64,000 nt of DNA. It comes from Candidatus Gottesmanbacteria bacterium. Its GTDB lineage: Bacteria; Patescibacteriota; Microgenomatia; UBA10105; UBA927. The notes beneath the pieces are model-generated. The model searched no databases and was not told the origin of the DNA. It was given only the letters and a program-made list of their open reading frames with translations. Below are positions 10,086 to 29,520 of the stretch, one piece after another. The stretch spans positions 731,548-795,547 of the forward strand of contig OY969569.1 of assembly GCA_963701185.1 (NCBI GenBank), in the 5' to 3' direction. The stretch's first letter is position 1. Each line of letters begins with the position of its first letter. Position numbers and translations under genes: made by a program.

Positions 10086-10772
10086 TTAATAAAATAATTC
10101 AAATTTCACTTGGGTATCGGGTACGCCTGCATCCTTCAATTTCACTCGCACATCCTCCACCATCGCTTTATTACCACAAAGGTAGTACTCCGATTCTCTG
10201 AGGTTTGTCCGGGAAAATAGGTGATCCTGTACATGCCCCCGTTTCCCTCCCCATACATCGCTGGGTTGGGAAAGAATAATATGGAGTGCGGCGGCGCCAA
10301 ACTCTTTTTGCCAAAATATATCTTCTTCATGCCGCAATCCCCAATACACTTCCATCATGTCGGAGGGGTGATCCCCGATCATGGAGTGAAACGGGGCAAT
10401 CCCCGTCCCTGTCGCGACTAATATCTTCCCACGAGGAGACTCCTTGTAGGTAAAATTCCCCAGCGGCCCCATCAATTCCATCTGATCTCCGACCTTGGCT
10501 GCCAAGGTCCATTTCGAATACACTCCCATGGGCGACACGTCATGGATGAGCATAATGGAAGTTTTTTCCGACGGAGGCGAGGCGATGGACATTGTACGGT
10601 TAACTCCAGGCGCAACATAGAGCATCACCGTCTGTCCTGCAAGAAAGGTAATTTCTTTAGGTTCGATGAGTTCGAACCGCTCCAGATACACCTTGCTCGA
10701 TATTTTTTCGATCGCGGTGAGCCGGGATTTAAATTTTTGCGGTTTAGGAAGCAACATATTTTTGTACGTCAA
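10086..10772 (-). CDS. FAD/NAD(P)-binding oxidoreductase, ferredoxin-NADP reductase-like
   Basis: FNR-like arrangement of an RxYS-type FAD region (MSIASPP) and a GTGIAP NAD(P)-binding motif. Confidence 0.65.
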   Translation of the reverse strand: MTYKNMLLPKPQKFKSRLTAIEKISSKVYLERFELIEPKEITFLAGQTVMLYVAPGVNRTMSIASPPSEKTSIMLIHDVSPMGVYSKWTLAAKVGDQMELMGPLGNFTYKESPRGKILVATGTGIAPFHSMIGDHPSDMMEVYWGLRHEEDIFWQKEFGAAALHIILSQPSDVWGGKRGHVQDHLFSRTNLRESEYYLCGNKAMVEDVRVKLKDAGVPDTQVKFELFY

Positions 10773-11706
10773 GGGCGGCCATACATCCCATGCCGGCCGC
10801 TACCACGGCTTGGCGGTATTGGAAATCCACACAATCCCCGGCGGCAAAGATCCCGGGGACCGTGGTTGCCGTATGGTAATCCCCGGGTTTTTGCAACCCG
10901 TGGACAATGACATATCCTTTCGGATCAAGGGAAAGCGTTTCTTTGAGAAATTCGGTGTTGGGTTTGTGTCCGATGGCTAAAAACACTCCTTGAGCCGGGT
11001 ACGCTTCTCCTTTACCGGTTACCACATCTTTGATACGCACCCCTGTCACAGTAGAATCACCCAAAATTTCTTCGATGATTTTATTGGTCAGCATCGCGAT
11101 TTTAGGATTCTTTCTAGCACGTTCCAGCATGATAGGGCTTGCCCGGAATTCAGCCCGTCTGTGGATGATGGTCACGCGAGTTGCAAACGTTGTCAGAAAA
11201 TTTGCTTCCTCCATCGCGGTATCTCCGCCTCCGACGACGACAACTTCTTTTCCGCGGAAGAAAAATCCGTCGCACGTGGCACAGGCGGATACGCCGCGGC
11301 CGGCCAGTTTTGTTTCCGACGGCAATCCCAAATACTGTGCTGCCGCGCCTGTTGCCACAATTACGGTTTTTGTTTCATACGAACCGTTTTCTGTTTTTAC
11401 AAAAAACGTGTTATTATTTTTTTTAACCTTCGTTACGATCTCCTGCTTTATTTCCGTACCAAAACGCACGACCTGCTCCTGCATGTCCATCATCAGTTGC
11501 GGTCCGGTGATCCCTTTGGGAAACCCCGGAAAATTTTCCACTTCCGTCGTCGTGGTCAGCTGCCCGCCCGGCTGTATCCCGGAAATGATGAGTGTTTTAA
11601 GAAAAGCCCGTGAGGTGTAGAGTGCGGCCGTATATCCTGCCGGGCCGCTGCCGATAATGACGACATCGTAGATCATACGATTAATTGATGAGTTTATTGA
11701 GTTCAC
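10744..11706 (-). CDS. trxB: Thioredoxin-disulfide reductase. The likely true start is at about 11676.
   Basis: GSGPAGYTAA FAD motif; CATC redox-active disulfide; GGGDTAMEEA NADPH motif. Confidence 0.9.
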   Translation of the reverse strand: MNSINSSINRMIYDVVIIGSGPAGYTAALYTSRAFLKTLIISGIQPGGQLTTTTEVENFPGFPKGITGPQLMMDMQEQVVRFGTEIKQEIVTKVKKNNNTFFVKTENGSYETKTVIVATGAAAQYLGLPSETKLAGRGVSACATCDGFFFRGKEVVVVGGGDTAMEEANFLTTFATRVTIIHRRAEFRASPIMLERARKNPKIAMLTNKIIEEILGDSTVTGVRIKDVVTGKGEAYPAQGVFLAIGHKPNTEFLKETLSLDPKGYVIVHGLQKPGDYHTATTVPGIFAAGDCVDFQYRQAVVAAGMGCMAALDVQKYVAS

Positions 11707-14102: not shown

Positions 14103-14804
14103 CTAAAGTTTTTCTCTACGGAGTAGCAGAGCGTTAAATACGACGATCACTGAGGAGGCGCTCATAAGGAGCGCTGCCCATTCAGGCCGAAGTAAGATAC
14201 CGAATGCCGGATACAAAACTCCCGCTGCCGTGGGAATGGCAAACACGTTGTATCCTGTCGCCCATATGAGATTTTGTACCATTTTCGCATTCGTCTTTCG
14301 GCTCAAAGAAATAGCCTTCACAACATCGAGCGGATTGTTTTTCATAAGGACTATACTTGCCGATTCAATAGCGACATCGGTTCCCGCGCCTATTGCGATA
14401 CCCACGTGGGATTGTGTGAGGCTTGGGGCATCGTTCACGCCATCACCAACCATCGCGACAATATGGCCGTGTTTTTGTAGTTCTTTAACTTTATTTACCT
14501 TGTCGTCCGGTAGTACGTGCGCAAATACCGTATCAACATGTAACTGGCGCCCTATGACATCCGCTACATCCTGCGTATCCCCGGTGAGCATTGCGGTTTT
14601 AATACCCATCTCGTGCAACCGTTCAATTGCTTCTTTAGATTCATCACGAATGATATCGGAAAGATACATGGCACCCTGAAATACGTTATCTATCGCAATG
14701 TAGACCGGGGTTTTTCCTTTCATCTGCTGGATTTTAGACGGAAGCGCGATATGGAGCTCATCCAAAAGCGTTTTGTTGCCGACAACGACTTTTTTACCTT
14801 TCAC
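14103..14804 (-). CDS. copA: C-terminal part of the Cu(I)-translocating P1B-type ATPase CopA (hinge GDGVNDAP plus last two TM helices). The gene is split from the N-terminal part by frameshift(s).
   Basis: MVGDGVNDAP, HVGIAIG and a C-terminal TM pair. This frame continues upstream as FKSYPGKGAAGVVKGKKVVVGNKTLL, the expected CopA sequence. Confidence 0.8.
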   Translation of the reverse strand: MKGKKVVVGNKTLLDELHIALPSKIQQMKGKTPVYIAIDNVFQGAMYLSDIIRDESKEAIERLHEMGIKTAMLTGDTQDVADVIGRQLHVDTVFAHVLPDDKVNKVKELQKHGHIVAMVGDGVNDAPSLTQSHVGIAIGAGTDVAIESASIVLMKNNPLDVVKAISLSRKTNAKMVQNLIWATGYNVFAIPTAAGVLYPAFGILLRPEWAALLMSASSVIVVFNALLLRREKL

Positions 14805-16378
14805 AACTCCAGCAGCTCCTTTCCCCGGATATGACTTAAAGTTCTGTTACTTCGGGAATAGGTAATATTTTGTTTTTTTGCTTCATTTACGATCCCCTGG
14901 GCGATTGAATGTTGGGATTTTACCTCCACCGCACTTGCTAAGGACAATAAATCTTTATCTGATATTTTTGAACCTTTGGTTTGGACGATCTGATTGATAC
15001 CGAATTCACCGCGGGTAAGCGTTCCTGTTTTGTCAAAGACGACATAATCAATTTTCCGGGCGATCTCGAGCCCTTTCATGTCTTTGATAAGGATGCCGTT
15101 TTTTGCGCCGAGCGTAGACGTGATGGTGGTTACCGTAGGAATAGCCAGGCCGAGAGCGTGCGGACAGGCAACCACAATTGCAGCTACGGCTACCGTTGCA
15201 GCAAAAACTGCGCCTTGAGGAAAAATAAACATCCAGAATACAAATGACAATAATCCTGCAACGACTGCAACATAAAATAAGACTGCCGCTGCCCGATCGG
15301 CGAGGTGCTGTACATTGGGTTTTGACATCTGCGCTTCGCGGATAAGTTTCATGATTTGAGAAATCGCGGTATCTGCGCCGGTTCTCGTAACCTCAATGGT
15401 GAGTGCCCCGTCCTGATTGAGCGTTCCGCCGATAACTTTATCGTCCTTCGCTTTACTGACGGGGCGCGATTCACCGGTCACCATCGATTCGTTTACCGAA
15501 CTTTCTCCTTCCACTATTATGCCGTCAATGGGAATTTTTTCTCCGGGCTTGACCAATAAACGGCTGCCGATAACGACGTCACTGGTACCAACGTCCACGA
15601 TCGTTCCGTTTTTAACCAGATGTGCCGACGGAGGGATAAGTTTGGCAAGCTCGGCAAGTGCTCCTGTTGCGCCACGAACAGCCCGCATTTCCAGCCAGTG
15701 GCCGAGTAAAAAGACGGAGATTAAGGTGGCAATTTCCCAGTAGAGTGACTCCCCGGGAAAAAGAAACGTTGCGGCAACGGAAAACGTATACCCGACGGTA
15801 ATGGCAAACGCGACCAGGGTCATCATTCCCGGATTTCTTTTGGATAGTTCGCCTTTGGCTGCCTTAAAAAACGGAATACCGCCAAAAAAATAAATAAACG
15901 TGCCGATCACAAATTGGAGTATGGCAAGTCCGGTGAATACTGCCTGAAAACCGAGCCATTTCTGAATATTCGGAGATAAAAGCATCGTGATGAGAACGAG
16001 CGGAAGGGTAATGAAGAAACGTCGTCGGAAATCCTTCTCCATAGAACTATGATCTTCATGTCCTTCGTGGGAAGAAGTCATCGGAACAAGCTTCATGCCG
16101 CATTTCGGACAATCCCCGGGTTTTTCCGTAATGACATCGGGGTCCATCGGACACGTATACAGGGTACCCGTATTCCCCTGCGCTTTTTGGTGACGTTCGC
16201 CCATAGCGGGAACCAATTTCATACCGCATTTGGGGCATGTACCGGGCCTGGAAGACGTAACCTCTTCATGCATCGGGCACGTATATATTTTGTGTTCAAT
16301 CTGTTTCATGTGGAGCATCCTTGATCCCCTGTTTTTGACCCACGTCCTCGTATCACTATACCATACAGAAATATACAT
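14801..16378 (-). CDS. copA: N-terminal part of CopA. It holds two HMBD repeats, TM helices and the actuator and phosphorylation domain through DKTGTLT, then is frame-disrupted near 14835-14880.
   Basis: Two YTCPMH...PG.CPKCGMKLVP repeats; the TGE motif (MVTGESRP); VVFDKTGTLT. The ORF tail after ...AKKQNI is out of frame relative to CopA homologs. Confidence 0.8.
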   Translation of the reverse strand: MYISVWYSDTRTWVKNRGSRMLHMKQIEHKIYTCPMHEEVTSSRPGTCPKCGMKLVPAMGERHQKAQGNTGTLYTCPMDPDVITEKPGDCPKCGMKLVPMTSSHEGHEDHSSMEKDFRRRFFITLPLVLITMLLSPNIQKWLGFQAVFTGLAILQFVIGTFIYFFGGIPFFKAAKGELSKRNPGMMTLVAFAITVGYTFSVAATFLFPGESLYWEIATLISVFLLGHWLEMRAVRGATGALAELAKLIPPSAHLVKNGTIVDVGTSDVVIGSRLLVKPGEKIPIDGIIVEGESSVNESMVTGESRPVSKAKDDKVIGGTLNQDGALTIEVTRTGADTAISQIMKLIREAQMSKPNVQHLADRAAAVLFYVAVVAGLLSFVFWMFIFPQGAVFAATVAVAAIVVACPHALGLAIPTVTTITSTLGAKNGILIKDMKGLEIARKIDYVVFDKTGTLTRGEFGINQIVQTKGSKISDKDLLSLASAVEVKSQHSIAQGIVNEAKKQNITYSRSNRTLSHIRGKELLEL

Positions 16379-16770: not shown

Positions 16771-17397
16771 CTAGACTTTCATGAAAAAAGAAGGAAACCA
16801 TCCGGGAGTTACTTTTTTGTAACGTTGATAATCGTCTCCAAACGTCTCTTCCATTTCTCTCTCTTCAGTACTCGCTAGCCGGATATACCGCCAAATAAGG
16901 ATGGGCGCCATGATAAGGGTAACAAGGGTCGGCCATTGAAGAAGGAAGCCAAAAATAATGAGGATAAATGCGACATACTGTGGATGACGGATATATGTAT
17001 AGATGCTGGTAGTCGCCAGCCGGCGCTCTTTCTGTGCCTTATAGAGCACTTCCCAGGATTTTCCAAGAAGGATAATGCCGCCGATAATCAAAACATTGCT
17101 GACAATATGTAATATATCAAAATGCGGATCGCCCTTGATTCCCAGCAATGTATTGAGAATATGGCCTTTATCATGGGTATAATCCAGCCCGAAACGGTTA
17201 CCGAAGAATGAAGTCAAAAGGTAAATGGTAAGCGGAAATCCGTACATTTCAGCAAAAAGCGCTACGATAAACGCACCCATGGACCGGAATGTCGTCCAGT
17301 CGGTTTTTGTCCTTGGTTTAAACGCGCTTTTGATAAAGAAAAGGAATATGACGATGTTAAAGATGGCAAACAGCCAATTTCCGTATCCGTTGTCCAT
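16771..17397 (-). CDS. Isoprenylcysteine carboxyl methyltransferase (ICMT)/PEMT-family membrane methyltransferase
   Basis: Multi-TM protein with an RHPxY...E C-terminal signature (IRHPQYVAF...EEREMEETFGDDY). Confidence 0.7.
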   Translation of the reverse strand: MDNGYGNWLFAIFNIVIFLFFIKSAFKPRTKTDWTTFRSMGAFIVALFAEMYGFPLTIYLLTSFFGNRFGLDYTHDKGHILNTLLGIKGDPHFDILHIVSNVLIIGGIILLGKSWEVLYKAQKERRLATTSIYTYIRHPQYVAFILIIFGFLLQWPTLVTLIMAPILIWRYIRLASTEEREMEETFGDDYQRYKKVTPGWFPSFFMKV

Positions 17398-18450: not shown

Positions 18451-19110
18451 TTAAAGCTTTGCCACCTCCGCGAGCATCTCCTTGTTTCTGACTGCCATCT
18501 GGGCATCATCAAGCGTAGATCGAACGATCCCGTCTTTATCAATTAAGATGTATGTATGTCCGGGAAATTGGCCCCTGTGCATTGACGAGTTGAGCGTTAA
18601 TACGCCGAACAGATTAGAAACCGACCGGTCCGGATCCAAAAGTACGGTGTTGCCGGCGAGCTCCGGCATCTTGTCAATTGCCTGCTTCCATTCCTCTTTT
18701 GTGTTAACCGTAATATTGAAAACCGCCGTATTTTTGGCTGCAAAATCTTTATCCTGGCCAAAAGCGATTATCTGATTCCAACAGGCCGGATAGCACATCA
18801 GACCCTCGTTAAAGAAAAGAACCACGTTTTTACCGCGAAAGTCTTTAAGGCTGATTGTTTTCCCATCATAACTGGGTGCCGTAAAATCCGGTGCAGGCGT
18901 ATTGATAAGGCTATCAAAAATAGCTGAATCTGCCGGCTTTGGTTTATGATGATCTGCCATCGAATCACCGGCGGCCGGCGTTTGCGCCTGTGTATTGACC
19001 GTTGCTGAGCCCGAATTTTTGATACATAGGGCTCCTAATATTACTACTGCCACAATAACTTCAGTGGCAATGATGACGATGTGTTTCTCAGTGAATTTCA
19101 TGATGTTCAC
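18451..19110 (-). CDS. Thiol-disulfide oxidoreductase of thioredoxin fold (TlpA/ResA/redoxin-like). It is membrane anchored and extracytoplasmic.
   Basis: N-terminal TM helix and a CYPAC CxxC motif in a thioredoxin-fold context (NVVLFFNEGLMCYPAC). Confidence 0.7.
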   Translation of the reverse strand: MNIMKFTEKHIVIIATEVIVAVVILGALCIKNSGSATVNTQAQTPAAGDSMADHHKPKPADSAIFDSLINTPAPDFTAPSYDGKTISLKDFRGKNVVLFFNEGLMCYPACWNQIIAFGQDKDFAAKNTAVFNITVNTKEEWKQAIDKMPELAGNTVLLDPDRSVSNLFGVLTLNSSMHRGQFPGHTYILIDKDGIVRSTLDDAQMAVRNKEMLAEVAKL

Positions 19111-20005
19111 CTCCTTTCATAAATTTTTTTCTGTCCATCCATTGCTTCAAGGCTTCTATAATAATTGCTCCAATAATGAGGACGAAAATACCGGCCCAAA
19201 CAGGTTCAGGAATAATTCCGGTATAGGTACCGATGAATTGAGTGAGCCGGGCTATGTAAATAGTAACGGATAGCTGGTACGTGTTTTGCATCGTAAGCTG
19301 ATTGGTGATGGTGAGATACAGAATGAGTATGCCTATAAAAAAGTACATACTGCCGGAAACAACGTTGGAAAGCGTGCTGGTGATCGTAAGCCTGAAAAGT
19401 TTGAAGGTCATGGGAGTTCTCAGCACCAATAGTTTTTGCGTGATGCGTGTTTTATCCAGAACTGCCGACAATACAAACAGCGGTATGACCATACCCAACA
19501 CATAGGTTATTGTGTACAGGGCGCCCCAAAGATATGAGCCTGGTAATGCGGACAGCGTAAGGACTCCGGCCAGGACCGGTGCACAACAGGTCGTCGCTAT
19601 CGCTGAAAATATGCCCAAAATAAAAATGGAAACCATGTCATATTTTTTAAATTCCGGGTGGGCAATCATCGGCAAAGAAAATTGTTTCCCTAAAAGGAGC
19701 GAAATACCAAGAAGCACCAGAAATGAAGCACCACCGAAAAATAATGCGTCGTGATACTGCCTAAACAACATGGATACTGCCGCTGTCCCTAGCCCGATCG
19801 GAATAAATACAGCTAAAAGTCCTAAGAAGTAGACAAACGTCATCAAAAAAACCGTACGTTTTTGTTTCACGACGGAAGCAAAGTACGTAGGAAGCAGCAC
19901 GGTAATGCAGCAGGGTGCCGCGAGCGCCGCAATTCCGGCAATAAAAGCAGACACGAGTGACGCACTCACAAGTACATCCATATTCCAAGAAGTTTTTAGC
20001 AACAA
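19088..20005 (-). CDS. CcdA/DsbD-superfamily polytopic membrane protein with paired-Cys (CC) motifs; paralog 1
   Basis: AAPCCITVLLPTYFA in TM1 and TTCCAPVLAGVLTLS in a later TM. It is a clear paralog of the 23047-23892 gene. Confidence 0.55.
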   Translation of the reverse strand: MLLKTSWNMDVLVSASLVSAFIAGIAALAAPCCITVLLPTYFASVVKQKRTVFLMTFVYFLGLLAVFIPIGLGTAAVSMLFRQYHDALFFGGASFLVLLGISLLLGKQFSLPMIAHPEFKKYDMVSIFILGIFSAIATTCCAPVLAGVLTLSALPGSYLWGALYTITYVLGMVIPLFVLSAVLDKTRITQKLLVLRTPMTFKLFRLTITSTLSNVVSGSMYFFIGILILYLTITNQLTMQNTYQLSVTIYIARLTQFIGTYTGIIPEPVWAGIFVLIIGAIIIEALKQWMDRKKFMKGGEHHEIH

Positions 20006-20184
20006 CCTCCCCCGCTATGTTGTCGGGGCTTACCCACAAACTGCTGTTGGTTTTTATCAAATTGGGCTTGACAGCTTTCGGAACAGAACCTATACGTCGT
20101 TCCGTTATGGCGTGTCTGATATGGAGACTCTCCGACTCCCATTCCACAGACCGGATCCTTTGACTTTTTAGAAAACCAATTCAT
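19996..20184 (-). CDS. YHS-domain metal-binding mini-protein with a C-terminal GGGCC
   Basis: MNWFSKKSKDPVCGMGVGESPYQTRHNGTTYRFCSESCQAQF is a canonical YHS signature. The terminal ...HSGGGCC adds Cys. Confidence 0.65.
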   Translation of the reverse strand: MNWFSKKSKDPVCGMGVGESPYQTRHNGTTYRFCSESCQAQFDKNQQQFVGKPRQHSGGGCC

Positions 20185-20247: not shown

Positions 20248-21645
20248 TTATGAGGATGAAAGCGGCAAATAGATCGTAAACTCGCTACCCTTGCTAACCT
20301 GGCTTTTGACGTGTATCGCACCATGGTGCGCGTTAATAATCGCCAGGGCAATAGACAGACCAAGTCCGGAGCCGAACGTTTTATCGGTTTTACTCCCTCG
20401 GTAGTACCGTTCAAATATATGGGGTACGTCCTTTTTGTGAATGCCGACGCCGATGTCTCTGATCTGAATGAGTATATGTTCGTCCGTTGTGGTTAATCGG
20501 ATGCGAACCGTGCCTCCACTTGGCGTGTACCGGATTGCGTTATCGATGATATTGATGACGGCACGCGACAGTTTGTCTTTTTTTCCATATGCTTTCACAT
20601 CGGGCTGTATAGCGGTTTCAATTCGTATCTTTTTTTCGGTTGCCAACTTGACGGCAATTTCCTTGAGCTCCCTCAGCAGTTCTGAGATGTCAAAGGTTTC
20701 AAATTGCTGGGTTGCGCTGTCTGCTTCCGACCACGCAAGATCTAAAATATTCTTCACCGTGTTTGTTACTCTTTTGGTATCGATGAGTGTTTCGGAGAGG
20801 GCTTTTTTGTACTCCTCTTTTGTTCGTTCTTTTGCAAGGATGACTTCACTACCGGTTTGAAGGATAGACAGAGGGGTTTTGAGTTCATGGGCAACATCGC
20901 CGATAAACTGGCGTTCGCGGGTAAATGCGTCATGAAGGCGGTCAAGGAGTGTGTTAAACGTCACTGCGAGTTTTTCTATTTCATCACCCGTATGTGGGTT
21001 CGTCACCCGCTCATGTAAGTTATCAGGGTTGATATGTTCAAGTTCTCCCGTAATCGTTGCAACAGGCTGTATAGCACCGCGTGCATTCAGGTATCCCCCA
21101 ATAATCGTAGGAATGAGGAAAATGATAAAGACACCGCCGAGAATGGTCAGAAGTATATTGATGGACTGTTGTATGGCGTCAATCGGATGACCCATAAAGA
21201 CAACACCGACAAAAATATTGTTTTGATGAACAGGACTTACATAAAATCGCATCAGTTGTGTCCCCACGGTTTGATCAGTAAAAAATGGGCGGTCTGTGTT
21301 TTTCGCAGTTTCAAATAATTGCGAGAATCGGGTGTCCGGCGGGTTTGTTGCCTGCGAACTGGTCACTGTCTTTCCCGCGCTATTGGTTATAACAACAAGC
21401 ATTCCCGGAAGCTGGCTAAATTCCTGCAGAAAGGATTGCGCGGCAAAGGCTTCATGCATCGTGCCGTTTGTCTGGGTAACGATCTCGATAATTTTATTGC
21501 TGTGTTCGATGAGCGTCCTATCAACCTGTGAGAACAGCGTTTGTTTGGTGAGAATGAAGAAACTTATGAAGATGATCGCGATGGCAAGGATAAACGATGC
21601 CGTATACCAGAGTGTCAGACGGAAGAGAATACTTTTCGTGTTCAT
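20248..21645 (-). CDS. Sensor histidine kinase with two TM helices, HAMP, HisKA and HATPase_c (CusS/CopS-like)
   Basis: H-box DVAHELKTPLS; N, G1 and G2 boxes (IIDNAIRYT, DIGVGI, GSGLGLSI). Confidence 0.9.
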   Translation of the reverse strand: MNTKSILFRLTLWYTASFILAIAIIFISFFILTKQTLFSQVDRTLIEHSNKIIEIVTQTNGTMHEAFAAQSFLQEFSQLPGMLVVITNSAGKTVTSSQATNPPDTRFSQLFETAKNTDRPFFTDQTVGTQLMRFYVSPVHQNNIFVGVVFMGHPIDAIQQSINILLTILGGVFIIFLIPTIIGGYLNARGAIQPVATITGELEHINPDNLHERVTNPHTGDEIEKLAVTFNTLLDRLHDAFTRERQFIGDVAHELKTPLSILQTGSEVILAKERTKEEYKKALSETLIDTKRVTNTVKNILDLAWSEADSATQQFETFDISELLRELKEIAVKLATEKKIRIETAIQPDVKAYGKKDKLSRAVINIIDNAIRYTPSGGTVRIRLTTTDEHILIQIRDIGVGIHKKDVPHIFERYYRGSKTDKTFGSGLGLSIALAIINAHHGAIHVKSQVSKGSEFTIYLPLSSS

Positions 21646-22319
21646 GGATGCACACTTATTTTATACCCGATGCCATGAATTGTATGCACGAGTTTGATTT
21701 TGGAATTTTTATCGACTTTCCGCCTCAAGGCTGCGACAAATACATCAACGACGTTACTCATGCTGTCAAAATTATAATCCCACACGTGTTCGGTAATCAT
21801 CGTTCGGGTAACCACTTCTCCTTTGTGGCGCAGTAATAACTCTAAAATGGCAAACTCCTTCGGCGTCAGTTTTATTTCATTTCCGGCTCTCTGGGCGATG
21901 TGTTTCATCGGATCGAGTGTGAGATCATCAAGCGATAGTGTGAGTGTCGGCGCAAGCTGAGTGCTTCTCCTGATAAGCGCATGGATACGGCTGCGTAGTT
22001 CCAAAAAGGAAAATGGTTTACCCAGATAATCATCCGCACCGCTATCCAGGCCGGAAACCCGGTCATCCACCGTAGTTTTAGCGGTAAGCATGAGAATGGG
22101 AGTCTTTATTCCTTTTTTCCGCAGTTCCCGGCAGACAGTCAACCCATTCTTTTTCGGTATCATGACATCCAATATGATAAGGTCGTATGTTTCAGATTCT
22201 GCCAAATACTGACCTTCTTCACCGTCATACGCTGCGTCTACTGCGAATCCCTCTTCAACCAGACCTTGTTTAACGACATGAGATAAGCGGCGTTCATCCT
22301 CTACGACGAGAATTCTCAT
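21642..22319 (-). CDS. OmpR-family response regulator (CusR/CopR-like). The start was moved to the internal Met (MRILVVEDE).
   Basis: Receiver domain with D...D...K residues (LDVMIP, MLTAK) and a C-terminal winged-helix domain (LTPKEFAILELL). It is translationally coupled to the kinase (ATGA). Confidence 0.9.
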   Translation of the reverse strand: MRILVVEDERRLSHVVKQGLVEEGFAVDAAYDGEEGQYLAESETYDLIILDVMIPKKNGLTVCRELRKKGIKTPILMLTAKTTVDDRVSGLDSGADDYLGKPFSFLELRSRIHALIRRSTQLAPTLTLSLDDLTLDPMKHIAQRAGNEIKLTPKEFAILELLLRHKGEVVTRTMITEHVWDYNFDSMSNVVDVFVAALRRKVDKNSKIKLVHTIHGIGYKISVHP

Positions 22320-22466
22320 ACCTGCATTATACGCTAAAATTATGAAGGAATTATTAAGATTTGATCGTAACGATTGTGGGACGTTCATTCCTATATTCAT
22401 GAAATCTTCATATTTAAAAGTGTTTAATACGAAACACCGCAATAATAGCGTGGCAGAGGAGGCTCT
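22320..22466. promoter_or_regulatory. Divergent intergenic control region between the response-regulator arm (-) and the DUF1573/CcdA/rhodanese arm (+)
   Basis: 147-bp AT-rich spacer. It holds a perfect palindrome GTGTTT-N6-AAACAC (22420-22437) and ATGAA-ATC-TTCAT (about 22398-22410), then a GAGGAGG RBS before the 22467 ATG. Confidence 0.35.
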
Positions 22467-22967
22467 ATGAGTGGAGAAACCAAATTTATTATCGGTGTGT
22501 CGGTTGTTACTGTTGCAATAATCGTCGGGGCAATCGTGCTCTTCAGCAATCAAAAACCGGCACCCAAACGGGAAGAATTAGGATCCGCAAGCATGACGAT
22601 TGATAAAAAGTCCGAGGATTTTGGCTCCATGAAGGTCAGTGATGAGCGGCGTGCCGCATTTACCATAACCAATACAGGCGACTCGATTCTCCGGATCTGG
22701 AAAGTAGCGACCTCCTGCGACTGTACGGCGGCGACCGTTAAAATCGGCGACACGGAAACTCCGGAGTTTAGTATGGCAGGGATGATGAGTTCGGAGCGCG
22801 CCAACTGGCTCGGTGAAGTGCCTGCAGGTAAAAACGCTGTTTTGACCGTTATCTACCGGCCGAGCGTTATGCCGGTTAACGGTCCGATTACCCGTCAGGT
22901 AAACTTTTCAACCAACGACCCGAATAACCCGGATGTGCAAGTCAGCATCTCGGCGAATGTACTATAA
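22467..22967 (+). CDS. DUF1573-like membrane-anchored protein
   Basis: N-terminal TM helix followed by a beta-rich domain with a TSCDCTAA motif. Confidence 0.6.
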   Translation: MSGETKFIIGVSVVTVAIIVGAIVLFSNQKPAPKREELGSASMTIDKKSEDFGSMKVSDERRAAFTITNTGDSILRIWKVATSCDCTAATVKIGDTETPEFSMAGMMSSERANWLGEVPAGKNAVLTVIYRPSVMPVNGPITRQVNFSTNDPNNPDVQVSISANVL

Positions 22968-23046
22968 AATTTTTAATCAATTTTTATTTTCTTAATTTTT
23001 AGTATTCAATGAAAATTTCAAATTAAAAATTGAAAATTAAGACTTT

Positions 23047-23892
23047 ATGAACAGCTTAGCTCTCATACAAAGTATTTCCTTAATTACAGCGTTTTTTGGC
23101 GGCATGGTGGCACTGTTTGCGCCGTGCTGCATCACGTTCCTTCTTCCAAGCTACCTCGCCAATATCTTCCGGGGCCGGAAAAATATTTTAGGGCTCACGC
23201 TCCTGTTTGGCCTGGGCATTGCAACCGTTCTTGTCCCGGCCGCCCTGGGAATCAGGGCTGTGGGACAGCTCTTTCAAAAATTCCATACCCAGACATATCT
23301 TGTCGGCGGCGCATTCATGGTCATTTTGGGTCTTATGGAGCTGACCGGCAAAAAAATTACAATTCCGATGCTCAACCTCACCATCGACCTTAACGCACAT
23401 AAAAGTCCCTGGGCAGTGTACGTCCTGGGTGTATTTTCCGGCATCACCTCGAGTTGCTGCACGCCGGTTCTTGCCGGTATTTTAACATTAAGTTTCCTCT
23501 CCCCCTCTTTCCTGTGGGCCGGTCTTGCCGGAGTAGCCTATGTCGCCGGCATGGTTGTACCGCTTGTTATCCTTGCTCTTCTTTTGGACCGCGTTGATTG
23601 GCAGAAAATGATGAATATAAAAGGGAAAACAGTGAATCTTTTTGGGAAAGCAAGACTACTGACCGACGTCGTTGCAGGATTCCTGTTTATCGCGGTAGGC
23701 ATACTGTTTAGCGCCCTGGCCGCTTCCGGCAATATCGCCATGGGCACCACAAAACCGGTTGAGGCAACGCTTGGGACGGGTGTTATGAATATCGTAAGAA
23801 GCGTTCGCTCTATTCCGGGGAGCGAATTTTTCTTTGCCGCGGCTCTCATTATAACCATCGTCATTGTTATATGGAAAGGAAAAAAAGTATGA
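23047..23892 (+). CDS. CcdA/DsbD-superfamily membrane protein with CC motifs; paralog 2
   Basis: ALFAPCCITFLLPSYLA and SSCCTPVLAGILTLS. It is collinear with the 19088-20005 protein. Confidence 0.55.
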   Translation: MNSLALIQSISLITAFFGGMVALFAPCCITFLLPSYLANIFRGRKNILGLTLLFGLGIATVLVPAALGIRAVGQLFQKFHTQTYLVGGAFMVILGLMELTGKKITIPMLNLTIDLNAHKSPWAVYVLGVFSGITSSCCTPVLAGILTLSFLSPSFLWAGLAGVAYVAGMVVPLVILALLLDRVDWQKMMNIKGKTVNLFGKARLLTDVVAGFLFIAVGILFSALAASGNIAMGTTKPVEATLGTGVMNIVRSVRSIPGSEFFFAAALIITIVIVIWKGKKV

Positions 23893-24974
23893 AAAAAACA
23901 TCCAATGAATTACCAAAAAAGGCAACGACAGTTCTCGTTCTCGTATCGCTCGTCCTGACCGGATATCTTTTGGGTGCCAAACAGGATGCACTGCGAGGTA
24001 TTCTTGCCAATCCGTTTTCTGCCGGCTATCGTCAGCAAAATGCGGTGAGTGCAAAACAGCTGGCTGGAATGATGAAAAACAAGGATTTTACGCTCATTAA
24101 CGTCCACACGCCGTACGAGGGTGAAATACCTAAAACCGACGCATTTATCGCCTACGATAAAATCGTCGAGAATTCGGCAAGCCTTCCCAAAGATAAGAAC
24201 GCGCCGATTATCCTCTACTGCCATACCGGCCGCATGAGCGATGAGGCCGTCACGACACTCAAAAAAATGGGATACACCAACGTGCGCCAGCTGGCGGGTG
24301 GGACGAACGCGTGGAAAAAAGCCGGACAAACCGTCATGGACCTCCAGTCACTGACTGACGAGGTGCTTCCGAAAAATGGTGCGACGCTTTCCGTGTCCTG
24401 GGGTGATATCTGGCCGAAACTCGTCGCGGCCGGGGTCATAGATCTTGCGAAGTTCAAAGAAACGGTCAAGCCGACGCCCGACCAGGAAAAAATTCTGACG
24501 GAAGGATCGGATGAAAAAATTACCATCACTGCCGAAAACAGTCAGTTTATTGTCGATGCGCTGTGGGCATTGGGTCTGGCGCAAAAAAGTACCGTCTATA
24601 CGGACGGCCCGATGGGCAAGGAGTATAAAAAAGAGGCCGGTAACTTCTCATCAACCGGCGGGTGGACATTGGCGCGCGGCAACGCAACGGACTATCTTGG
24701 CCAGCTTGACGTCATTCCGTTGACGGATGCCCAGCAGAAAAAAGTTGCGGAGATTGCCAAAAACGTCTATCGCCCGTGCTGCGGCAATTCAACATGGTTT
24801 CCGGACTGCAACCATGGCATGGCGGCCCTTGCGGCTATAGAACTCATGGTGTACGCAGGAATGGAAGAAAAACAGATTTATAAAGAGGTGCTCGCCTTAA
24901 ACAGCTTTTTCTTTCCGCACGAATTATCTCACGACTGCGACCTATTTTGCGAGGGCTGGTACACCGTGGGATAA
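23871..24974 (+). CDS. Membrane-anchored rhodanese-domain protein fused to an unrecognised C-terminal Cys/His-rich domain
   Basis: N-terminal TM helix. The rhodanese active-site loop LYCHTGRMS sits in an about 100-aa rhodanese fold. The about 200-aa C-terminal region has CCGNSTWFPDCNHG and HDCDLFC with no family I can name. Confidence 0.7.
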   Translation: MERKKSMKKTSNELPKKATTVLVLVSLVLTGYLLGAKQDALRGILANPFSAGYRQQNAVSAKQLAGMMKNKDFTLINVHTPYEGEIPKTDAFIAYDKIVENSASLPKDKNAPIILYCHTGRMSDEAVTTLKKMGYTNVRQLAGGTNAWKKAGQTVMDLQSLTDEVLPKNGATLSVSWGDIWPKLVAAGVIDLAKFKETVKPTPDQEKILTEGSDEKITITAENSQFIVDALWALGLAQKSTVYTDGPMGKEYKKEAGNFSSTGGWTLARGNATDYLGQLDVIPLTDAQQKKVAEIAKNVYRPCCGNSTWFPDCNHGMAALAAIELMVYAGMEEKQIYKEVLALNSFFFPHELSHDCDLFCEGWYTVG

Positions 24975-25160
24975 AGTGGACGCCAAAGAGGCCTTGGGCG
25001 CCACATACTCAGGCGGCCAGGGTGCGGCAGAAATTTCCAAAAAAGTGGGTCCCCTGCCCTACGGACAGAAGTCAGCCGGCGGCTGCGGCGCGTAACATAT
25101 GATCATACTGCCAATAGTAAGTGGCATCTATCGACAATCGGATTACTTGCTCTATACGGG

Positions 25161-25517
25161 GTGACGTTAATTACACTCAACGGGTGGCCGGGTTCGCTCG
25201 AAGAAATTCAGTCGCTCTGGTGGCTTCTGGTGCCGCTTGCCATAGCCTTCGGGACACAGGTGGGCATGTTTGTTGCTCTCAAGCGGCGCGCACGGATTCA
25301 CGGGGCTACATCGCTTGCAGGAGGTGGCGCGTCCGCGGGCGTGAGCATGCTTGCCTGCTGCGTCCATCATGCAACGGATGCGCTCCCGCTTTTGGGCATG
25401 TCGGCTGTGGGATTTTTTCTCATCCGTTTTCAAAAACCGCTGCTTGTCGCGAGTATCGCCATAAATAGTATCGGCATCTGGTATATGTACAAACACTTAA
25501 AAAAGGCGTCGCTATGA
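25161..25517 (+). CDS. Small membrane protein with an ACCVHH motif. GTG start; the start is uncertain.
   Basis: 118-aa ORF with three or four TM helices and paired Cys plus His in a TM region. Confidence 0.45.
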   Translation: MTLITLNGWPGSLEEIQSLWWLLVPLAIAFGTQVGMFVALKRRARIHGATSLAGGGASAGVSMLACCVHHATDALPLLGMSAVGFFLIRFQKPLLVASIAINSIGIWYMYKHLKKASL

Positions 25518-25936
25518 TCAAAATACTACTCCCCATCCTTGCCGTGCTCGTGGCAATAATTCTTCTCCGGAATAAACCGGCAGCAGGGCCGTCACCGGTC
25601 CCATTTGAAACAAAACAAAATACTGAGGCAAATGTGGAGATATCTGTGACGCCGCAAACACTCACGCCGGGTAAACAGGCAACATTTCAGATATCTTTTA
25701 CTACGCACTCCGTGGACCTCAATTTTGACGTTGCGGGCAGTGCGGAATTGGTTGATGAAAAAAACAATATTCTGGGGAAAGCCGTGTGGGATGGCACCCC
25801 GCCGGGCGGCCATCACCGCAGCGGTGCGCTGACGTTTTCAGCCCCTCTCCCTAAACAAATAAAATCCGTCACTCTTACCCTCGCGGATATTTCCGGAATC
25901 GCAACACGTACGTTTGAATGGAAGGTGATAGAATAA
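25514..25936 (+). CDS. Secreted or membrane-anchored beta-rich protein with a GTPPGGHHRSG motif
   Basis: N-terminal signal anchor, 4-nt overlap with the upstream gene and a His-containing loop. Confidence 0.5.
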   Translation: MIKILLPILAVLVAIILLRNKPAAGPSPVPFETKQNTEANVEISVTPQTLTPGKQATFQISFTTHSVDLNFDVAGSAELVDEKNNILGKAVWDGTPPGGHHRSGALTFSAPLPKQIKSVTLTLADISGIATRTFEWKVIE

Positions 25937-26082
25937 TGAAAGATTGGCTTTTATTATTCGCTATTCTTGCATGTCCTCTTGTACATATATTTTTTATGCG
26001 ACACAATGATCATAAACAACGAAACCCTCCTTCGCTAAAGCTTCGGAGGGCGAGGGGAGGTGAACACCATCATGAAACATAA
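25936..26082 (+). CDS. Second DUF2933-like mini-protein, 48 aa, not in the ORF track, with a His-rich tail
   Basis: Hand translation gives MKDWLLLFAILACPLVHIFFMRHNDHKQRNPPSLKLRRARGGEHHHET. It shares the LxCPL(L/V)Hxx(M/F)M core with the 18219-18389 protein. TAATG overlap with the upstream stop. Confidence 0.4.
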   Translation: MKDWLLLFAILACPLVHIFFMRHNDHKQRNPPSLKLRRARGGEHHHET

Positions 26083-26338
26083 CCCCATCGCAACTGCCAA
26101 CGCGGCCGCGGCCACAATAGCAGTCATTTATGTCGTATGCGCACTGTTTTTTGTGATTGCTCCGGATCTGTCAATGGCCATTGCAAAAACCTGGTTTCAC
26201 GGCATCGATATTTCGCTCATAGATGCGCGGATAGCCACTTTCGGTTCGTTTATCCTGGGTTTGGTTTCTGCCACCGTCAGCGCCTGGCTCGTAGGATATT
26301 TATTTGCCGTCATATATAATAAACTCACAGAAAAATGA
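26072..26338 (+). CDS. Small two-TM membrane protein
   Basis: A GGGGAGGTGA RBS lies 6 nt upstream of ATG 26072 (MKHNPI...). The ORF track lists a GTG start at 26060. Confidence 0.5.
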   Translation: MKHNPIATANAAAATIAVIYVVCALFFVIAPDLSMAIAKTWFHGIDISLIDARIATFGSFILGLVSATVSAWLVGYLFAVIYNKLTEK

Positions 26339-26352
26339 GGAGGTGAGTGTTT

Positions 26353-26481
26353 ATGATGGGATATTATGGGGGCATGATGGGTTCGTGGGGTCTGTTTGGG
26401 TCACTAACCTGGCTCCTGTTGATCATCTTTTTAATTCTCGGCATCGCGTACTTCTGGAAAGAGATCAATAAAAAACGATGA
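26353..26481 (+). CDS. Single-TM mini-protein, 42 aa
   Basis: AGGAGGTGA RBS; MMGYYGGMMGSWGLFGSLTWLLLIIFLILGIAYFWKEINKKR. Confidence 0.35.
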   Translation: MMGYYGGMMGSWGLFGSLTWLLLIIFLILGIAYFWKEINKKR

Positions 26482-26786
26482 CGCTGTTTCAGAAAAAAAC
26501 GTATCAACTACTGACCACCGTCCCGCGTGGCCGTGTAACGACATACAAGGCCTTAGCCGATGCGCTGGGAACCAAGGGCTACCGCGCGATTGGGCAATTC
26601 ATGAAACATAATCCGTACGCCCCTGCAGTCCCCTGCCACCGTGTGGTGGCGTCTACTGGCACCATCGGAGGATTTAATGGCGGAATTACCAAGAAAATCC
26701 GCATGCTGCGGGAGGAAGGAGTTAAAATTTCCGGAAAAAATATTATCGATTTCCCTACCGTGTTATTTCCTTTTCCAGACTCTTGA
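26478..26786 (+). CDS. MGMT-family protein (methylated-DNA-protein-cysteine methyltransferase DNA-binding domain only, YbaZ-like)
   Basis: VPCHRVV active-site motif within an about 80-aa HTH domain; no N-terminal domain. Confidence 0.7.
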   Translation: MTLFQKKTYQLLTTVPRGRVTTYKALADALGTKGYRAIGQFMKHNPYAPAVPCHRVVASTGTIGGFNGGITKKIRMLREEGVKISGKNIIDFPTVLFPFPDS

Positions 26787-28824: not shown

Positions 28825-29520
28825 CTAGAGGTAGAGCGCCACGGTCATGTTCCAGAAGATATGAACGAGAATCGGGGCGACGAGCGAACCTGTGTTGTAA
28901 TAGAGCAAACTGTTGGCTACCGCCAACACCAAATCCGTCACGATAAAAAGAACCAACGTCATCCCCTGCAATCTGGTCGCCGTCACCAGAATCGGTATAT
29001 GAAGAAGGACAAACATCACCGATGAAACAGTGGTTGAATACAACAAATTCTTTGTTTTTTCATACAGCCGGTTAAAAACGAATCCGCGTGAGAGTAATTC
29101 CTCCGTAAATGCTGTTGCCAGTGACAGAATAATGAGGAAAAATCCGTACTGCTGGAACGCGGCAATTGGATTAACGTCCAGTTTCCCATACTTGATGGCA
29201 TGGGTGGCCAGTCCTTCGAGCGCAAAGACGACGCCGAATCCCAATCCTATGTATACGCTGGTAAAGAAATTGTGCCAGGTGAGACCGATCGACGCGAGTC
29301 TCTCTTTTTCTTTGTTACGGACATACCAGATAACCGGCGCCACAAACACAAGAGGTTTGAAGATAAACTCATCAGCCCATTCCGGAAGTTTGAAAAAATA
29401 CCGGTACAGGCTCCACGCCAGGAGAATCCACGCCCAGAGACGAAAAACACTGGAAACTGACGTCCCTACTTTTTTGACAGCCATACTATAACAATACCCC
29501 ACTCGTTCATTTCGGTGCAA
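28825..29520 (-). CDS. CPBP-family (CAAX protease/Abi) intramembrane metalloprotease
   Basis: FTEELLSRGF (EExxxR), FVLLH and HIFWN motifs. Confidence 0.8.
   Translation of the reverse strand: MHRNERVGYCYSMAVKKVGTSVSSVFRLWAWILLAWSLYRYFFKLPEWADEFIFKPLVFVAPVIWYVRNKEKERLASIGLTWHNFFTSVYIGLGFGVVFALEGLATHAIKYGKLDVNPIAAFQQYGFFLIILSLATAFTEELLSRGFVFNRLYEKTKNLLYSTTVSSVMFVLLHIPILVTATRLQGMTLVLFIVTDLVLAVANSLLYYNTGSLVAPILVHIFWNMTVALYL

Follow-up and report, generated by a model that had tools for sequence, protein, structure and literature searches.

The stretch of DNA analysed here (the window, 64,000 nt of contig OY969569.1 from a Candidatus Gottesmanbacteria bacterium) carries on its plus strand a module consisting of a DUF1573 protein, a CcdA-like membrane protein and a membrane-anchored rhodanese fused to a C-terminal domain without annotation, which we call domain X. 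The X family is real, large, conserved and undescribed. It combines occurrence in hundreds of species, an invariant Cys/His centre, a confident structural model without a solved relative and an unusually clear copper-export operon context, the last of these being the main new information presented here. We propose that the module is the core of an envelope copper-stress thiol system conserved across the Patescibacteria, in which the membrane Cys protein would keep X reduced and X would bind or otherwise handle Cu(I); in our estimate the chances for and against this proposal are evenly balanced. The Patescibacteria, or candidate phyla radiation (CPR), account for much of bacterial diversity, and no function has been assigned to the majority of the proteins conserved in them. 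The X family provides a concrete, testable entry to envelope copper protection in these ultra-small, cytochrome-poor bacteria and, if the proposal is true, a CcdA-type thiol transporter would be serving a client without the thioredoxin fold, and the range of clients known for such transporters would be extended.

Domain X and the gene that carries it

The rhodanese-X gene (23889..25096, +) encodes 401 amino acids if a 1-nt insertion at 24918 is taken out, whereas the sequence as it stands has a stop at 24974. Its product begins with the Lys-rich segment MKKTSNELPKK, which precedes a signal-anchor transmembrane (TM) helix (23922..23978, hydropathy scan), and continues with a rhodanese domain (24051..24323) and domain X (24363..25096), the latter being broken by the frameshift. 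The motif CCGNSTWFPDCNHG, reported in the original prediction for the C-terminal domain, is present, and residues 165 onward are without a match in Pfam or NCBIfam, so that the domain was rightly called unassignable. The invariant centre of X, C-C-G-N-S-T-W-F-P-D-C-N-H, is encoded by 24777..24815 (+), and the codon of a tail Cys, the third residue from the C-terminus, lies at 25085..25087 (+), within the terminal GGCGA that precedes the stop.

The end of the 367-aa open reading frame (ORF; 23871-24974) that had been taken for the full protein is an artefact. The homologs of this protein are approximately 400 aa in length and, in the homolog alignment, all end ...FFFPxNYLTTATYFARQGTxWDKVDAK...KKVGPLPY....GGCGA. 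DNA alignment with locus L084, which encodes the closest relative (P0003), reveals a single extra C at position 24918 (TTTCCG-ACT versus TTTCCGCACG); the +1 frame from 24919 encodes the conserved C-terminus, ...TNYLTTATYFARAGTPWDKVDAKEALGATYSGGQGAAEISKKVGPLPYGQKSAGGCGA*, ending at 25096. Because the extra C shifts the reading, the supposed domain motif HDCDLFC is out-of-frame text, and the hallmark C-terminal Cys was missed since it sits beyond the false stop. In place of a six-Cys domain of about 200 aa, X has four conserved Cys and one His in approximately 245 aa. The translational coupling to the CcdA-like gene was recognized correctly, but the 22-nt overlap holds for the longest ORF only. 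Homologs begin with MKKTSN, corresponding to the ATG at 23889, which results in a 4-nt ATGA overlap and has AAGGA 8-12 nt upstream; L084 has the matching 4-nt overlap of the ccdA stop and the rhodX start. The rhodanese-X and CcdA-like genes are real rather than chance ORFs, since they possess thousands of homologs and differ from the closest relative mostly by synonymous codon changes.

It is possible, though in our view the less probable case, that this locus is a decaying set of pseudogenes that yields no functional product, with true mutations behind the frameshifts of rhodanese-X and copA. The insertion at 24918 lies outside any homopolymer, and the public protein of this genome (P0001) is the same truncated 367-aa product. 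Furthermore, the gene for the HMBD-type CopA P-type ATPase (14103-16378, minus strand) is split into two ORFs of 525 and 233 aa. In a tblastn search with the CopA of L084 the match passes from frame -1 into frame -3, and translation in all six frames points to two indels around 14805-14865. The gene thus has at least two frame changes, and the copper island of the window, rhodanese-X included, no fewer than three indels. Against decay, the repaired frame 3' of the insertion contains no stop and differs from L084 by 19 synonymous and 5 nonsynonymous codons, which argues that the insertion either arose very recently or is an error of sequencing or assembly, and the remaining genes of the module are all intact. 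Programmed frameshifting was considered for rhodanese-X and rejected, as the relatives keep an intact frame.

When X is searched alone, 3,315 clusters at 90% identity are recovered; a profile search returned 621 representatives at 50% identity, 429 of these at E≤1e-10, and the domain occurs in at least 589 of 185,579 species genomes. By record title the hosts are almost all Patescibacteria, including Gottesman-, Woese-, Roizman-, Levy-, Davies- and Amesbacteria, Parcubacteria lineages, Saccharibacteria, Peribacteria and WWE3; two hosts are Chloroflexota. Many records (L005, L008, L011-L013 and others) bear the titles "uncultured Gammaproteobacteria" or "Pseudomonadales", which look like placeholders or errors because the gene content is the same and the proteins show 60-69% identity to those of Gottesman- and Woesebacteria. 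Thirty-one diverse members share an invariant Trp, T-G-G (in ASTGGW), R-P-C-C-x-N, D-C-N-H-G and the Cys third from the C-terminus (C243 in A4), and the combination of CC-x8-C-x-H with the tail Cys is found in about 115 of 119 representatives. No description of the family was found in the literature on rhodanese with CcdA in Patescibacteria, on DUF1573 with copper, on CsoR with CcdA or on CPR copper resistance, nor under the X motifs PDCNHG and RPCCGN.

The 31 diverse members gave no Pfam match at E≤5. Comparison with the sequences in the PDB, by single sequence and by profile, yielded only All4940, with an E value of 0.07 and an alignment of 63 residues in the N-terminal subdomain, which was treated as noise, and the fold of X has no match in the PDB (Foldseek best E 4.6). 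AlphaFold2 (AF2) models of X-containing proteins are confident, with predicted local distance difference test (pLDDT) values of 91.4 and 83.3. X is largely helical in the models, and in both of them the third Cys of the centre forms the N-terminus of a helix while the Gly-rich tail is disordered (pLDDT below 50) and hence flexible. MerA (...CC) and the high-Mr thioredoxin reductases (...GCUG) likewise have a Gly-rich, disordered C-terminal tail, the redox- or metal-active Cys of which shuttle between a partner and a buried centre. The tail of X, with its last Cys, may act in a similar manner; it differs in having a single Cys rather than a pair, in belonging to an unrelated, non-flavoprotein fold and in its predicted location outside the cytoplasm.

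Two known classes of protein were considered for X and rejected. A papain/C39-like peptidase was suggested by DC..G..AL at the start of a helix; such an enzyme has its catalytic His and Asp/Asn on beta strands after the Cys helix, but in the model of X only helices follow the Cys, there is no invariant downstream His and no fold in the PDB matches. The HdrB-type CCG domain (PF02754), with its Fe-S-binding motif CXnCCGXmCXXC, contains a CXXC which X lacks, the corresponding sequence of X being RPCC[GND]N...DCNH, and no match to this or another Pfam family appeared in the 31-member search.

The commonest architecture is a TM anchor followed by X, in proteins of ca. 300 aa. TM-rhodanese-X proteins, as in the window, have ca. 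400 aa, and in proteins of ca. 500 aa X is fused to a domain of four to five TM segments with GCPxCG. Rarer combinations are TM-cupredoxin-X with type-1 Cu ligands (P0294), a cytoplasmic HMA domain (GMTCPSC) with TM and X (P0195), and X with BNR repeats (P0235). Since HMA and cupredoxin are two classical copper-binding domains, these fusions directly indicate a role in copper handling. CopG (DUF411), which has a thioredoxin-like fold and a CxCC motif, is comparable in that it is an outward copper-island protein with a vicinal CC in its metal centre, a feature which is only predicted for X; the two have no sequence relation, and the Pfam DUF411 model does not match X.

Copper islands and the partners of domain X

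ORFs were called in 81 X loci, the neighbours were classed against reference proteins, and partners were counted if they lay within five genes of X. DUF1573 was found in 61 of the 81 loci, followed by CopA (47), the CC-type CcdA-like protein (44), CsoR (42), cupredoxin (26), rhodanese, fused or separate (25), DUF5676 (21) and a signal-peptide CPxC membrane protein (14). CcdA-like proteins are directly adjacent to X in about 33 loci; if more canonical forms are included, they are present in 55. The CPxC protein is immediately upstream of X in 13 of its 14 loci, and those 13 have no CcdA-like match within five genes; a further CxxC membrane family is found at position -1 or -2 of X in five loci. 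The constant element is X together with a membrane protein with a buried Cys pair, which is drawn from at least three unrelated families or fused to X.

Common gene orders are csoR - DUF1573 - (CcdA-like or CPxC protein) - X and DUF1573 - X - CcdA-like. In L084 csoR is followed, after a 1-nt gap, by cupredoxin-copA-DUF1573-ccdA-rhodX, five genes joined by 4-nt overlaps. The Cu(I)-type C...HxxxC fingerprint is found in 33 of 46 neighbouring CsoR proteins. This copper context, comprising the CsoR/CopA/cupredoxin operons and the fusions to HMA and cupredoxin, was overlooked in the original prediction, which had offered copper as one of three possibilities beside zinc and an Fe-S cluster; for a domain that would face outward in a copper island, an Fe-S cluster is unlikely. 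In L034, L064, L071 and L080 the genes immediately before X are those of a response regulator and a histidine kinase. In the window, too, a two-component system, the probable regulator, lies divergent from the module: the response regulator (21642..22319, minus strand) starts MRILVVEDE at 22319, and its partner, recognized from its ORF and the recurring context, is a histidine kinase (20248..21645, minus strand).

The CcdA-like membrane protein (23047..23892, +; 281 aa) contains APCCITFLLP and SSCCTPVLAG as reported. A hydropathy scan indicates about seven hydrophobic segments, with the first doublet (APCC) in the first and the second (SSCCTP) in the fourth, and APCC and CC[AT]PVL are kept in roughly 90-100% of 49 neighbouring CcdA-like proteins. 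Pro-flanked Cys in TM1 and TM4 of a pseudo-symmetric six-TM core are the mark of CcdA, to which the family is homologous, and as in CcdA the gene is coupled to that of a client predicted to face outward. The differences are a vicinal CC in each half instead of the canonical single Cys, an additional C-terminal TM and a client without the thioredoxin fold. This copy is below Pfam reporting, with no match to DsbD_TM (PF02683) even at E≤1, whereas 3 of 9-10 orthologs or homologs pass the threshold; roughly half of the homologs in the database come with a precomputed assignment to PF02683, and homologs bear the name CcdA in their source records.

It is correctly described as a second paralog, since it shows 37% identity (E 3e-48) to the product of 19088-20005 on the minus strand, which matches DsbD_TM with 31.9 bits (cut-off 27.1; E 1e-7). 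The latter ORF forms a pair (18451..20005, minus strand) with 18451-19110, which it overlaps by 23 nt and which specifies an anchored, thioredoxin-fold Prx/TlpA-like protein (Pfam AhpC-TSA, E 4.9e-21). Because an anchored thioredoxin-fold protein is the classical client of CcdA, a role as reductant conduit is favoured. Such a CcdA-like/Prx-like pair also adjoins X in L038 and L061. To our knowledge, CPR bacteria are generally without c-type cytochromes. In the window the pair is part of a coupled minus-strand set (18451-20184) with a YHS protein ending in GGGCC, and the motif CYPAC of the Prx/TlpA-like protein is an unusual CxxxC with Sco-like spacing.

The first gene of the module, a conserved third partner that was overlooked previously, specifies the DUF1573 protein (22467..22967, +; 166 aa). 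It consists of an N-terminal TM anchor (residues 7-25) and an Ig-like domain with TSCDCT, a CxC motif, and matches Pfam DUF1573 (PF07610) with 46.5 bits (E 3.9e-12; cut-off 26.1) and the HYDIN/VesB Ig-like family at E 1.4e-10. TSCxCT is conserved in all 70 of the neighbouring DUF1573 homologs. A selenocysteine (UGC) form of DUF1573 is listed in PMC13188914, which marks the CxC site as redox-active. Between this gene and the CcdA-like gene there is a very AT-rich 79-nt spacer (22968-23046) where relatives have 4-nt overlaps. A consensus scan found no promoter or terminator in the spacer, and over 22300-26400 the counts of such elements did not exceed those in shuffled sequence.

The N-terminal half of the anchored protein was recognized correctly as a TM anchor followed by a rhodanese with LYCHTGRMS. 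Pfam Rhodanese (PF00581) matches residues 61-151 with 46.5 bits (E 5.4e-12; cut-off 22.2), and in NCBIfam there are partial matches to PspE and GlpE with scores far under the equivalog cut-offs. In the AF2 model of a full-length relative (pLDDT 91.4) rhodanese and X form a single rigid body, with a predicted template modelling score (pTM) of 0.84. Using Foldseek, the N-terminal domain of this model matches the rhodaneses GlpE (1gmx), YgaP (5hbo) and 3gk5, with 26 PDB rhodanese chains at E≤1e-3 and root mean square deviations of approximately 1.5-2.3 Å for several of them. The catalytic Cys (codon 24219-24221) begins the loop C-H-T-G-R-M-S. In 117 fused homologs the Cys, Met and Ser of the loop are invariant and the Gly and Arg nearly so (C-x-[TS]-G-R-M-S), which is the six-residue sulfurtransferase form (CxxGxx[ST]) of PspE and not the seven-residue CX5R phosphatase loop. 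The anchored protein thus carries a PspE/GlpE-type rhodanese and is a predicted sulfurtransferase. It shares with PspE and GlpE the fold and the loop C-x-x-G-R-x-S, and with PspE a presumed non-cytoplasmic location, but is membrane-anchored, fused to X and found in copper islands. The rhodanese is an optional accessory and X the constant element: a rhodanese is fused to DUF1573 in L030, L056 and L064, stands free beside X in L034 and L044, and is found in any form in only the 25 loci given above. In combining a rhodanese with a membrane domain of the DsbD type, the module recalls TsoB (NCBIfam NF045694), a rhodanese/DsbD fusion-like selenoprotein family listed in PMC13188914. Here the two are separate, coupled genes without selenocysteine, TsoB has no domain X, and both window proteins match its model weakly (ca. 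17 bits against a cut-off of 805).

The suggestion that the rhodanese is extracytoplasmic, which we infer to hold for X as well, is consistent with the positive-inside rule: 241 single-anchor members of the family average 3.4 Lys plus Arg on the N-flank of the anchor and 1.8 on the C-flank, a bias which favours an N-in, C-out orientation. All partners in the module are membrane or anchored proteins, VKOR is found near X, and L001 contains a DsbA-like gene.

Some observations on the small Cys proteins of the islands may be added. The CPxC protein (L003 5519-6004, and 13 other loci) has approximately 160-180 aa. Removal of its predicted signal peptide would leave HCPLC at the very N-terminus of the mature protein, and this His-Cys-Pro-Leu-Cys sequence is plausible as a site for copper. 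In many cases the opposite strand carries a paralog with VCP[IV]C in the vicinity. In L048 and L082, small anchored proteins with SPTCGCCG, recognized by motif only as the CxCC of CopG/DUF411, are located two genes upstream of X.

Proposed role of the module

In the proposed scheme copper would induce the operon together with the CopA exporter; in the relatives CsoR would mediate this and, in the window, probably the two-component system encoded divergently from the module. Reducing equivalents from cytoplasmic thioredoxin would be carried over the membrane by the CcdA-like protein, and DUF1573 may have a function like that of DsbD-alpha, an Ig-fold domain. We envisage the tail Cys of X as a swinging arm that moves between the Cys pair of the membrane protein and the CC/C/H centre; the latter, as thiolates, would bind or buffer the Cu(I) leaving CopA, or reduce Cu(II). 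Where a rhodanese is present, it could offer a single-Cys extra reduced-thiol or sulfane-sulfur site on the same reductant supply. The original prediction of a CcdA-type transmembrane thiol conduit feeding an extracytoplasmic module stays the best reading; the direction of electron flow and the role of the tail Cys are our deductions.

The closest functional parallel is the Scs/DsbD-CueP system of Salmonella. Cu-induced ScsB/DsbD systems keep envelope Cys reduced, the Cys/His protein CueP takes Cu(I) from CopA, and the Ig-fold Cys domains DsbD-alpha and ScsB-alpha include a thiol oxidoreductase in DsbD-alpha (PMC10907172). In both systems a membrane protein of the DsbD/CcdA superfamily is combined with outward Cys proteins, of which CueP must stay reduced, and with an Ig-fold Cys domain, and the synteny suggests that copper induction is also shared. 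X, however, lacks both the thioredoxin fold and CxxC and resembles neither CueP nor ScsC. The CC doublets here belong to a membrane protein of the short CcdA type, the Ig-like domain forms a protein of its own (DUF1573) and carries CxC rather than CX3C, and the host is a monoderm-like CPR bacterium with CsoR or a two-component system as the probable regulator instead of CueR/Cpx.

Several points weigh against the proposal. Cu(I) binding by X is deduced from its invariant Cys and His residues and from the context of its genes, and X is without the thioredoxin fold that all known clients of CcdA and DsbD possess. The CC doublets of the membrane protein are atypical for an electron-conduit CcdA and recall the metal-transporting MerT. 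About 40% of the loci have no CopA within five genes, and 13 of the 46 neighbouring CsoR-family proteins (L038, L039, L041, L049, L057 and others) have C...HxxxH, which is not of the Cu type and may signal a different effector in Saccharibacteria- and Parcubacteria-like lineages. Finally, the module may be inactive in the present genome, with both X and CopA frameshifted.

A more far-reaching version, which we put forward tentatively and as decidedly less probable than the general proposal, is that X represents a new-fold class of outward copper-handling proteins in which a Cys3-His centre and a swinging tail Cys would exchange Cu(I) or electrons directly with the Cys pairs buried in membrane proteins from three or more unrelated families. 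This would make X the counterpart of CueP/CusF/Scs throughout the CPR, and in the rhodanese-fused forms sulfane sulfur might also trap copper.

Other explanations start from the same genes. X could be a thiol-disulfide reductase or isomerase, analogous to ScsC/DsbC, that repairs envelope proteins misoxidised by copper and whose disulfides between the tail Cys and CC/C are recharged by the CcdA-like protein. The copper-operon context and the CcdA linkage would be the same, one Cys lies at the N-terminus of a helix as in redox sites, the CcdA paralog is paired with a thioredoxin-fold protein, and the Cu-induced Scs reductases provide a precedent (PMC10907172). X, however, has neither a thioredoxin fold nor CxxC; the invariant His, Asn, Asp and Arg beside its Cys, as well as the HMA and cupredoxin fusions, point to metal handling; and few disulfide-bonded envelope clients are known in CPR cells, so that we regard thiol repair as unlikely. 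We give still less credence to a relay of sulfane sulfur, in which the rhodanese would take sulfur from thiosulfate or polysulfide and pass the persulfide by way of the tail Cys to the CC centre, exported copper being trapped outside the cell as copper sulfide or polysulfide. In favour of such a relay are the intact PspE-type loop, invariant in the 117 fused homologs, the rigid rhodanese-X body of the model and the shuffling of the rhodanese between X, DUF1573 and a free-standing position. Yet the rhodanese is absent from 56 of the 81 loci and TM plus X alone is the commonest architecture, from which we conclude that it is not the core function; moreover, the islands contain no further sulfur-metabolism genes and the neighbouring CsoR proteins keep their His ligand, as HxxxC in 33 and HxxxH in 13 of 46.

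The last and, by a little, the least probable of these explanations is a Mer-like relay in which X captures a soft metal outside the cell (Cu(I), possibly Hg or Ag) and hands it to the CC pairs, the membrane protein conducting metal and not electrons. It would account for the vicinal CC conserved in both halves of the membrane protein, which is unusual for CcdA and which we take to resemble the metal-binding CC of MerT and MerA, and it would suit the plausible Cu site HCPLC at the N-terminus of the alternative partner and the fusions of cytoplasmic HMA with TM and X. Import, however, makes little sense beside the exporter CopA. The membrane protein belongs to a family with homology to DsbD_TM and has a paralog that is paired with a redox protein of the thioredoxin fold, neither it nor X matches MerT, MerP or MerC in Pfam or NCBIfam, and no gene for a MerA-like metal reductase was found among the neighbouring genes examined.

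Other genes of the window

Elsewhere in the window are genes for CopA with HMBD, an HMBD protein, YHS, DsbD_2 plus cupredoxin, thioredoxin reductase (10744-11706) and VKOR. Directly downstream of the module, at 25161-25936 (+), a gene for a small membrane protein with the conserved motif M-[LI]-[AS]-C-C-x-H-[HY] overlaps one for an anchored, Ig-like protein of 140 aa. Neither family matches Pfam above threshold; they are found near X in 9 and 11 of the 81 loci and are adjacent to each other in several. They are followed by a two-TM protein of the DUF5676 family (26060-26338, +), which in its 21 X loci is mostly one to two genes downstream of X, and by an ORF (26478-26786, +) whose sole match is to the DNA-binding domain of O6-methylguanine methyltransferase (PF01035) and which is also near the copper island in L003 and L084.

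An ICMT/PEMT-like membrane methyltransferase (16771-17397, minus strand) adjoins the HMBD-CopA genes, and an Rce1-like CAAX protease (28825-29520, minus strand), conserved also in L084, is encoded within a few kb. The C-terminal Cys of X led us to consider processing of the CaaX type, which was rejected despite the proximity of these two genes, the Cys being at -3 and not at -4.

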